This document shows positions 1,061 to 1,828 of a stretch of DNA of 4,520 nucleotides, piece after piece (position 1 is the stretch's first letter; every line of letters starts with the position of its first letter). The notes beneath the pieces were generated by a model, which ran no database searches, was not told the DNA's origin, and worked only from the letters and a program-made list of their open reading frames with translations. The stretch lies in the IMG/VR virus record IMGVR_UViG_2541047126_000023. One strand, written 5' to 3'. Made by a program: the position numbers and the translations under genes. This DNA comes from a virus (lineage: Duplodnaviria; Heunggongvirae; Uroviricota; Caudoviricetes).

Positions 1061-1246
1061 GTTGAGAAGTGATTTTTTACCGGGAGGAAATTTATGGAGA
1101 CTGTTTTTGACGCACTGAAAGCGATGGGAAAAGCCACGTCGGTATAGCTGGCTGCGCGACTTGATATCAGTCGTGAAGAAGTACTGAACGAGCTGTGGGA
1201 ACTGAAAAAGGCTGGCTTCGTTGATAAAAGCGTATACACCTGGCGT

Positions 1247-1828
1247 GTGGCTGATAACAACGTTCAGCAGGAACAGCCAGCGCCAGAAGAAACCACCACG
1301 GCAACAGAAGCGAAAATCTCAGAGTGCGATTTAACCGCGACGATTGAACAACGCGGACCACAAACGGCGGATGAACTGGCTACGCTGTTCGGTACAACAT
1401 CCCGCAAAGTTGCTTCAACGCTGGCAATGGCAATCAGCAAAGGTCGTCTGATTCGCGTAAACCAGAACGGTAAAATTCGTTACTGCATACCAGGTGATAA
1501 TTTACCAGCAGAGCCGAAAGTTGAATCGGTAGCGGAAACCGATGGTAAAGCCTTTCCTCAGCCAGCCGGTGTTGCGTTACCGGTACAGAAAGATGCAACA
1601 CAGGAAGATATTAAAACAGAAACTGTGGCGGACATTGTGCAGTCGCTGCCATCGTTTACTGCAACGCGAGAAGATGATTTGATTTTGCCATCGCTGCATA
1701 TGGCAAATCGCGAACTGCGTAGGGCGAAGAATCATGTCCAGAAGTGGGAGCGAGTCTGCGCCGCGCTGCGGGAGCTGAACAAGCACCGGGATATGGTTGC
1801 CGGGATTTGTCGGAAGTCCGGGCAATGA
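1247..1828 (+). CDS. Winged-helix (HTH) DNA-binding protein; largest callable segment (GTG start) of a gene whose ATG and first 17 codons (1094-1144) are separated by an in-frame TAG at 1145-1147; possibly a pseudogene or suppressor-dependent allele
   Basis: Frame 2 is open from 1148 to TGA 1826-1828. An upstream ATG at 1094 has a near-consensus SD GGGAGG (1082-1087, spacer 6). The translation is continuous across the TAG as a single w[48 protein letters not shown] second wHTH-like segment ([32 protein letters not shown]) follows. GTG 1247 has no convincing SD. Confidence 0.5.

Follow-up and report, generated by a model that had tools for sequence, protein, structure and literature searches.

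We find that a prophage gene of the DUF1627/YdaW family (Pfam PF07789, phrog_630; positions 1094-1828, plus strand) is interrupted at codon 18 by an in-frame amber codon, and we conclude that this TAG is very probably a recent, lineage-fixed nonsense mutation (E18*) in a defective prophage and not a special decoding signal. The gene, ancestrally 244 codons long and here a pseudogene cut at codon 18, lies in the window analyzed in this study, a 4,520-nucleotide stretch from a Caudoviricetes virus record (IMG/VR IMGVR_UViG_2541047126_000023) that represents the early-right region of a lambdoid prophage. What is directly observed is the substitution, the direction and distribution of the change, and the conservation of both the residue and the domain affected.

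An amber codon at a conserved glutamate

The initiation signals of the gene are strong. As the first-pass annotation had it, a Shine-Dalgarno sequence that can be read from the DNA (GGGAGG, 1082-1087, plus strand; a GGAGG match) precedes ATG 1094, and the frame reaches an in-frame TAG after 17 codons; the spacer before the ATG measures 6 nt. These 17 codons (METVFDALKAMGKATSV; 1094-1144, plus strand) are still translated and correspond to helix 1 and the first strand of an N-terminal winged-helix-like domain. The premature amber codon occupies 1145-1147 (plus strand), and its T1145 is derived from the G of an ancestral GAG encoding Glu18. The remainder of the gene (1148-1828, plus strand), which we predict to be untranslated, stays open to 1828 as first described, but it holds 226 sense codons followed by TGA (1826-1828), the earlier figure of 227 codons having counted the stop. 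Domain 1 is completed within it, followed by a second winged-helix-like domain (about residues 78-131), a linker that is disordered, and the long helix of the C-terminus.

Codon 18 falls at a position that is conserved across the family. Glu18 is present in all 117 close cluster representatives and in 48 of 56 distant full-length homologues, the others having Asp (3), Ala (3), Gln (1), or Val (1), and it is part of the conserved motif KATxxE(I/V)AARL. A stop occupies this column in none of the 117 close and none of the 56 distant homologues. In homologues a single unbroken protein of 244-257 amino acids runs across codon 18, which agrees with the original observation that the peptide reads on through the TAG; therefore, the frame is not a chance pairing of two ORFs. 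The first-pass annotation would have been contradicted by homologues that begin at the position of GTG 1247 and lack the N-terminal residues. What we find instead is that homologues begin at the position of ATG 1094 (100 of 120 close representatives start with METVFDALKAMG) and keep the N-terminus.

Comparison with homologous prophage genes, the check suggested for this site, recovers a sense codon. The gene (1094-1831) is base-for-base identical to the copies in O157:H7 Sakai (prophage Sp9) and EDL933, both of which carry TAG. The orthologues from O55:H7 (WP_000450692.1, strain DEC5D) and from the O145:H28 PPompW phage (BCI48946.1, phage Stx2_14040) are intact at 244 aa and share the prophage type and flanks of the window copy (DnaT-like O, P, small ORF, fimbrial pseudogene, paa). 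Within the gene they differ from it by one base only, a G at window position 1145, which gives GAG, Glu18, and a full-length protein. The O111:H8 copy has GAG and one other change, and strain 2013C-4187 also keeps GAG at codon 18. The DEC5D and PPompW copies bear out the explanation listed first for the stop, namely a nonsense mutation of recent date at a codon that one substitution would turn back to sense; GAG was among the sense codons proposed. An in-frame stop thus stands within a conserved domain where orthologues have a sense codon, and the outgroup shows the stop to be the derived state, as in a pseudogene.

Among the carriers listed, the two alleles are partitioned by serotype. We counted alleles with an exact 91-nt probe centred on codon 18 in 5,426 complete E. 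coli genomes and found an exact TAG allele in 293 and an exact GAG allele in 265, for 558 carriers of either allele, about 70 of which were seen by name. All listed TAG carriers with a serotype label are O157:H7, and every O157:H7 copy of the gene that we examined has TAG. The 60 listed GAG carriers include three O55:H7 genomes together with O145:H28, O26:H11, O111, O103, and O121; none of the 60 has an O157 label. In addition, the 193-aa product annotated from the TAG allele is present in 4,948 blocks of a public assembly collection, and wherever its surroundings were shown the gene context was the same. We conclude from these data that the T is real and derived: a single G-to-T transversion at 1145 converted GAG (Glu18) to TAG in the prophage DUF1627/YdaW gene. 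The change very probably occurred once O157:H7 and O55:H7 had separated, in a lambdoid prophage that carries paa and sits in ompW (Sp9, with its counterpart in EDL933), and was passed on throughout the O157:H7 lineage.

Predicted domains and the effect of truncation

For family and structure searches the TAG was read as Glu. The resulting protein matches Pfam DUF1627 (PF07789) over residues 84-236 with 308.7 bits against a cut-off of 28.1 (E = 8e-93), and it matches phrog_630, which is annotated as of unknown function, over residues 1-242 (E = 2.5e-121). The DUF1627/YdaW family is narrow, with 176 clusters in 1.84 billion representative proteins. Its full-length architecture, consisting of an N-terminal domain, a second domain, and a C-terminal helix in about 220-260 aa, is complete here at the DNA level. 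Alignments of distant full-length members (27-67% identity) run from residue 1 to about residue 235, and given that they extend down to 27% identity, the family includes the N-terminal domain.

An AlphaFold2 model built from 45 homologues has low overall confidence (mean pLDDT 54.5, pTM 0.25), and we therefore use only residues 1-52 and the C-terminal helix. Residues 1-52 (pLDDT 80-87) are modelled as helix 4-11, strand 13-15, helix 16-23, helix 27-40, and strand 49-51, and the C-terminal helix spans residues 191-242 (pLDDT 73-88). Confidence is low for a second helix-helix-helix-hairpin unit at 78-131. Residue 18 is predicted to lie within helix 16-23, where the second helix of the helix-turn-helix begins. 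As modelled, the stop would fall inside a structured N-terminal domain and not between genes, consistent with the first description of the site.

The description of this domain as a winged helix, also part of the first-pass annotation, is supported by the predicted topology, but the HMM matches are weak. HTH_20 (PF12840) scores 25.9 bits against a cut-off of 27 and MarR_2 16.3 against 27, the TrmB model likewise gives a sub-threshold match to the N-terminal unit, and precomputed Pfam assignments list PF12840 for many close homologues. In Foldseek, the top matches to the N-terminal unit are all winged-helix domains, none of them significant (best E = 0.49). A PDB sequence search with the domain returned best E values of 0.37 (FeoC) and 0.91 (E3 Z-alpha). 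Assignment to a specific DNA-binding family was rejected on these values (at least 0.37 in the PDB search and at least 0.49 in Foldseek), and "winged helix" is a reasonable description of the unit. The term "regulator" denotes a predicted role with predicted DNA binding, and a regulatory role for the YdaW family has also been predicted in the literature (PMC9308461).

Ribosomes initiating at the strong Shine-Dalgarno sequence and ATG 1094 would terminate after 17 residues. Both winged-helix-like domains and the C-terminal helix would then be lost, save for traces from basal readthrough or reinitiation; judging from the downstream starts, which have no Shine-Dalgarno sequence, we infer that full-length protein is no longer made. 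The truncation may also reach the next gene. A small ORF of 54 aa (1825-1989, plus strand; WP_001505071.1) matches phrog_30109 (E = 6e-17), a family of unknown function, and has no Pfam match. Its start ATG and the TGA of the DUF1627 gene share bases (ATGA; junction GGGCAATGAGC), and this arrangement suggests translational coupling between the two. With upstream translation lost, expression of the small ORF should fall, and the coupling at 1825 is probably weakened.

Alternative readings of the interrupted frame

Both public annotations of this locus begin the protein past the TAG, and neither flags a pseudogene. In Sakai the start is GTG 1247 (1247-1249, plus strand; ECs_5720, 193 aa), which corresponds to Val52 of the homologues, and in EDL933 PGAP starts at CTG 1148 (plus strand; WP_077744273.1, 226 aa), directly after the TAG and corresponding to Leu19. 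Given that both codons are internal in the homologues, we regard both starts as annotation artefacts, and the choice of GTG 1247 is probably an annotation convenience. This GTG is the first canonical in-frame start (ATG/GTG/TTG) past the TAG and, as first reported, has no Shine-Dalgarno sequence; none precedes any of the in-frame start candidates between the TAG and 1448. A literature search under the old locus tags ECs1770, ECs1771, Z2050, and Z2051 returned nothing relevant to this ORF. One practical consequence is that truncated artefacts fill the protein databases, as the 4,948 blocks with the 193-aa product illustrate.

Could such a product nevertheless be real? Reinitiation at GTG 1247 (or CTG 1148) would give a protein that has lost the first winged-helix domain but retains the second along with the C-terminal helix; this protein could act alone or as a dominant-negative partner of paralogues encoded by other prophages. 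We consider it very unlikely. Both annotations do call a product, 193 aa in Sakai and 226 aa in EDL933, but they do so from starts that have no Shine-Dalgarno sequence; GTG 1247 is 100 nt past the TAG, and CTG initiates very poorly in E. coli. None of the full-length family members begins at the Leu19 or Val52 position, and the one protein seen to start where the GTG lies (MADNN..., P0121) shares 98% identity with the gene over residues 53-235. The frame past the TAG is intact in all O157:H7 copies examined, as reinitiation would predict, but a mutation this young would leave the downstream frame intact in any case. The same reading gains from the C-terminal helix, which is confidently modelled and could mediate oligomerization, and from the presence of paralogues in the same genomes. 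Low-level amber readthrough, by a near-cognate tRNA or a host suppressor, would instead supply a small and possibly regulated dose of the full-length protein, and we judge this very unlikely. Basal UAG readthrough exists in E. coli, the base after the TAG is C, a comparatively weak termination context for UAG in this organism, and the initiation signals upstream are strong. Against these points, the stop is found in none of the 117 close or 56 distant homologues, is a single substitution more recent than the O55:H7 allele, and bears no sign of selection to keep it. The RNA downstream of the stop (1145-1234) has no stimulatory structure, with a folding energy of -21.1 kcal/mol compared to a shuffle mean of -20.3 (z = -0.30). 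Neither a conserved stop nor a 3' structure or context, the two marks of programmed readthrough, is thus present, and the earlier suggestion of a regulated dose finds no support. The related suggestion of a suppressor-dependent allele finds no tRNA to work with in the prophage, because ARAGORN detects no CUA-anticodon suppressor in the window, which contains no tRNA, or in the 58-kb Sp9 of Sakai.

Laboratory lambdoid amber (sus) mutants, such as lambda Oam29, Pam80, and Sam7, were selected and maintained in suppressor hosts. They resemble the window allele in being one-base changes to TAG in a phage gene whose product a supE/supF-type host would restore; in contrast, the window TAG is a natural allele that a pathogen lineage has fixed, its prophage contains no suppressor tRNA, and nothing marks it as conditional by design. 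Recoding sites likewise have an in-frame stop with an open frame beyond it, but homologues share such stops, often in a stimulatory context, whereas the window stop occurs in no homologue and the RNA downstream is unremarkable. Two further readings have next to no probability. Sequencing or assembly error at T1145 was raised by the first-pass annotation, and the first kilobase of the window does match no complete genome closely (best 96.7%), but from 1051 to 4517 the window and Sakai differ at a single base, 3431. Error is excluded by the same T in 293 independently sequenced complete genomes and by the truncated product in 4,948 blocks. The other reading takes the locus as two genes, with a leader peptide of 17 codons ahead of a downstream gene that is independent of it, as a strong Shine-Dalgarno sequence and ATG ahead of a very short ORF might suggest. 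It is ruled out by the homologue alignments, in which one continuous 244-257-aa protein is encoded, together with the structural model, in which the 17 residues are predicted to make up the first helix and strand of a folded domain; the downstream part also has no start signals of its own.

Prophage context and decay of the gene

The window has the gene order of a lambdoid early-right region. The 3' part of a DnaT-like replication gene (O-type) extends to 606 and is followed by a lambda-P-type helicase loader (599-1060), the interrupted DUF1627 gene, and the small ORF. A fimbrial pseudogene (about 1994-2527), with a frameshift and an internal stop according to PGAP, separates the early genes of the prophage from the adhesin gene paa/adfO (2688-3446). 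Its lesions are annotated alike in O55:H7 and O111:H8, and decay of the fimbrial gene is therefore older than the TAG at 1145. Further downstream, sok (3635-3784; Rfam RF01794, 103.9 bits) and hokD (3782-3937, with a longer mok-like frame from 3725) form a complete hok/sok-type module, and a rem-like gene occupies 4155-4415. The Pas sRNAs, which have been reported as linked to DUF1627 genes, lie beside holin/lysozyme genes outside the window, and sok is the only Rfam match within it. An antisense ORF (631-1260) that runs across the stop site has no Pfam match and spans the intergenic gap, and we treated it as a chance ORF. At the left edge of the window (1-50), the O-type replication gene contains two direct repeats of GTCACGACA and three copies of GATACA, encoding TDTDTD. 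These could be iteron-like or a mere coding repeat; lambda-type replication origins sit inside the O gene.

The two halves of the window differ in their relationship to Sp9. Between 43 and 1040 there are about 110 differences from Sp9, and from about 1051 to 4517 there is one (base 3431). The upstream stretch follows the O/P genes of another O157 prophage at 126 sites, Sp9 at 30, and neither at 18, and the best match to the first kilobase of the window among 5,426 complete genomes is 96.7%. The exact P protein of the window occurs in 31 blocks, followed in the places examined by other, intact DUF1627 alleles. From this pattern in the sequence, the window is a mosaic with its junction in the intergenic region between P and the DUF1627 gene. 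The same junction was not found elsewhere in the 5,426 complete genomes or in the contigs examined, and the mosaic leaves the conclusion on the stop codon unaffected.

The interrupted gene follows directly on the replication genes, and from about 1050 on the window matches Sp9 of O157:H7 Sakai and EDL933. Sp9 is defective, with a repressor that has no peptidase domain and with disrupted recombination, portal, and head functions, and it still excises spontaneously and is packaged (PMC2669165). It is integrated in ompW, and its right arm carries a cluster of type III secretion system effector genes (nleA, nleH, nleF, nleG, espO, and espM). In Sakai, Sp9 also contains two tRNA genes upstream of its lysis genes (16436-16668), one ileZ-type (CAT) and one argO-type (TCT, a tRNA-Arg). 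O157:H7 genomes have 4-7 places homologous to the DUF1627 gene; for instance, another prophage of O157:H7 strain FRIK804 encodes an intact 232-aa paralogue with GAG at codon 18. Given that Sp9 is already defective and that intact paralogues are present in other O157:H7 prophages, neutral decay is the most likely account of E18*.

Inactivation of DUF1627 genes is not confined to this allele. In the non-O157 strain 2013C-4187 (NZ_CP027546.1, locus 1495-2228), the orthologue has an independent frameshift downstream, and the 50% clusters of DUF1627 contain many representatives of fragment length, which together suggest that the family is often inactivated in prophages. No further lesions are found past the TAG in any O157:H7 copy examined. 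The mutation is so young that a clean downstream ORF is no argument for retained function, and it is equally what a truncated product still in use would show.

A known relative is YdaW of the K-12 Rac prophage, which belongs to the same DUF1627 family and is encoded directly after the replication genes. Like the window gene, it is decayed and sits in a defective prophage. The two are about 91% identical over the 91-nt N-terminal stretch, which is kept in K-12, whereas the window copy is cut at codon 18. K-12 ydaW has been predicted to encode a MarR-like transcription factor of unknown function and differs in length from the O55:H7 protein (PMC9308461). In a genome-wide screen, over-expressed Rac ydaW was recovered as a blocker of the retron-Sen2 toxin RcaT (bioRxiv 10.1101/2020.06.22.160242).

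We see little chance that E18amber was instead fixed in O157:H7 for its effect, whether through loss of a YdaW-family DNA-binding protein, a Rac relative of which blocks a retron toxin when over-expressed, or through a GTG 1247 product that hinders the paralogues of other prophages by way of its C-terminal helix. If this were true, the mutation might have altered cross-talk among prophages or expression of the region of the small ORF and the paa adhesin. As a neutral lesion, E18* would carry small biological weight, being one more among the defects of Sp9. T versus G at 1145 serves as a single-base marker that separates the O157:H7 prophage copy from those of O55:H7 and other serotypes. Of more interest than the stop codon is the intact DUF1627 family itself, which is always found beside replication genes.
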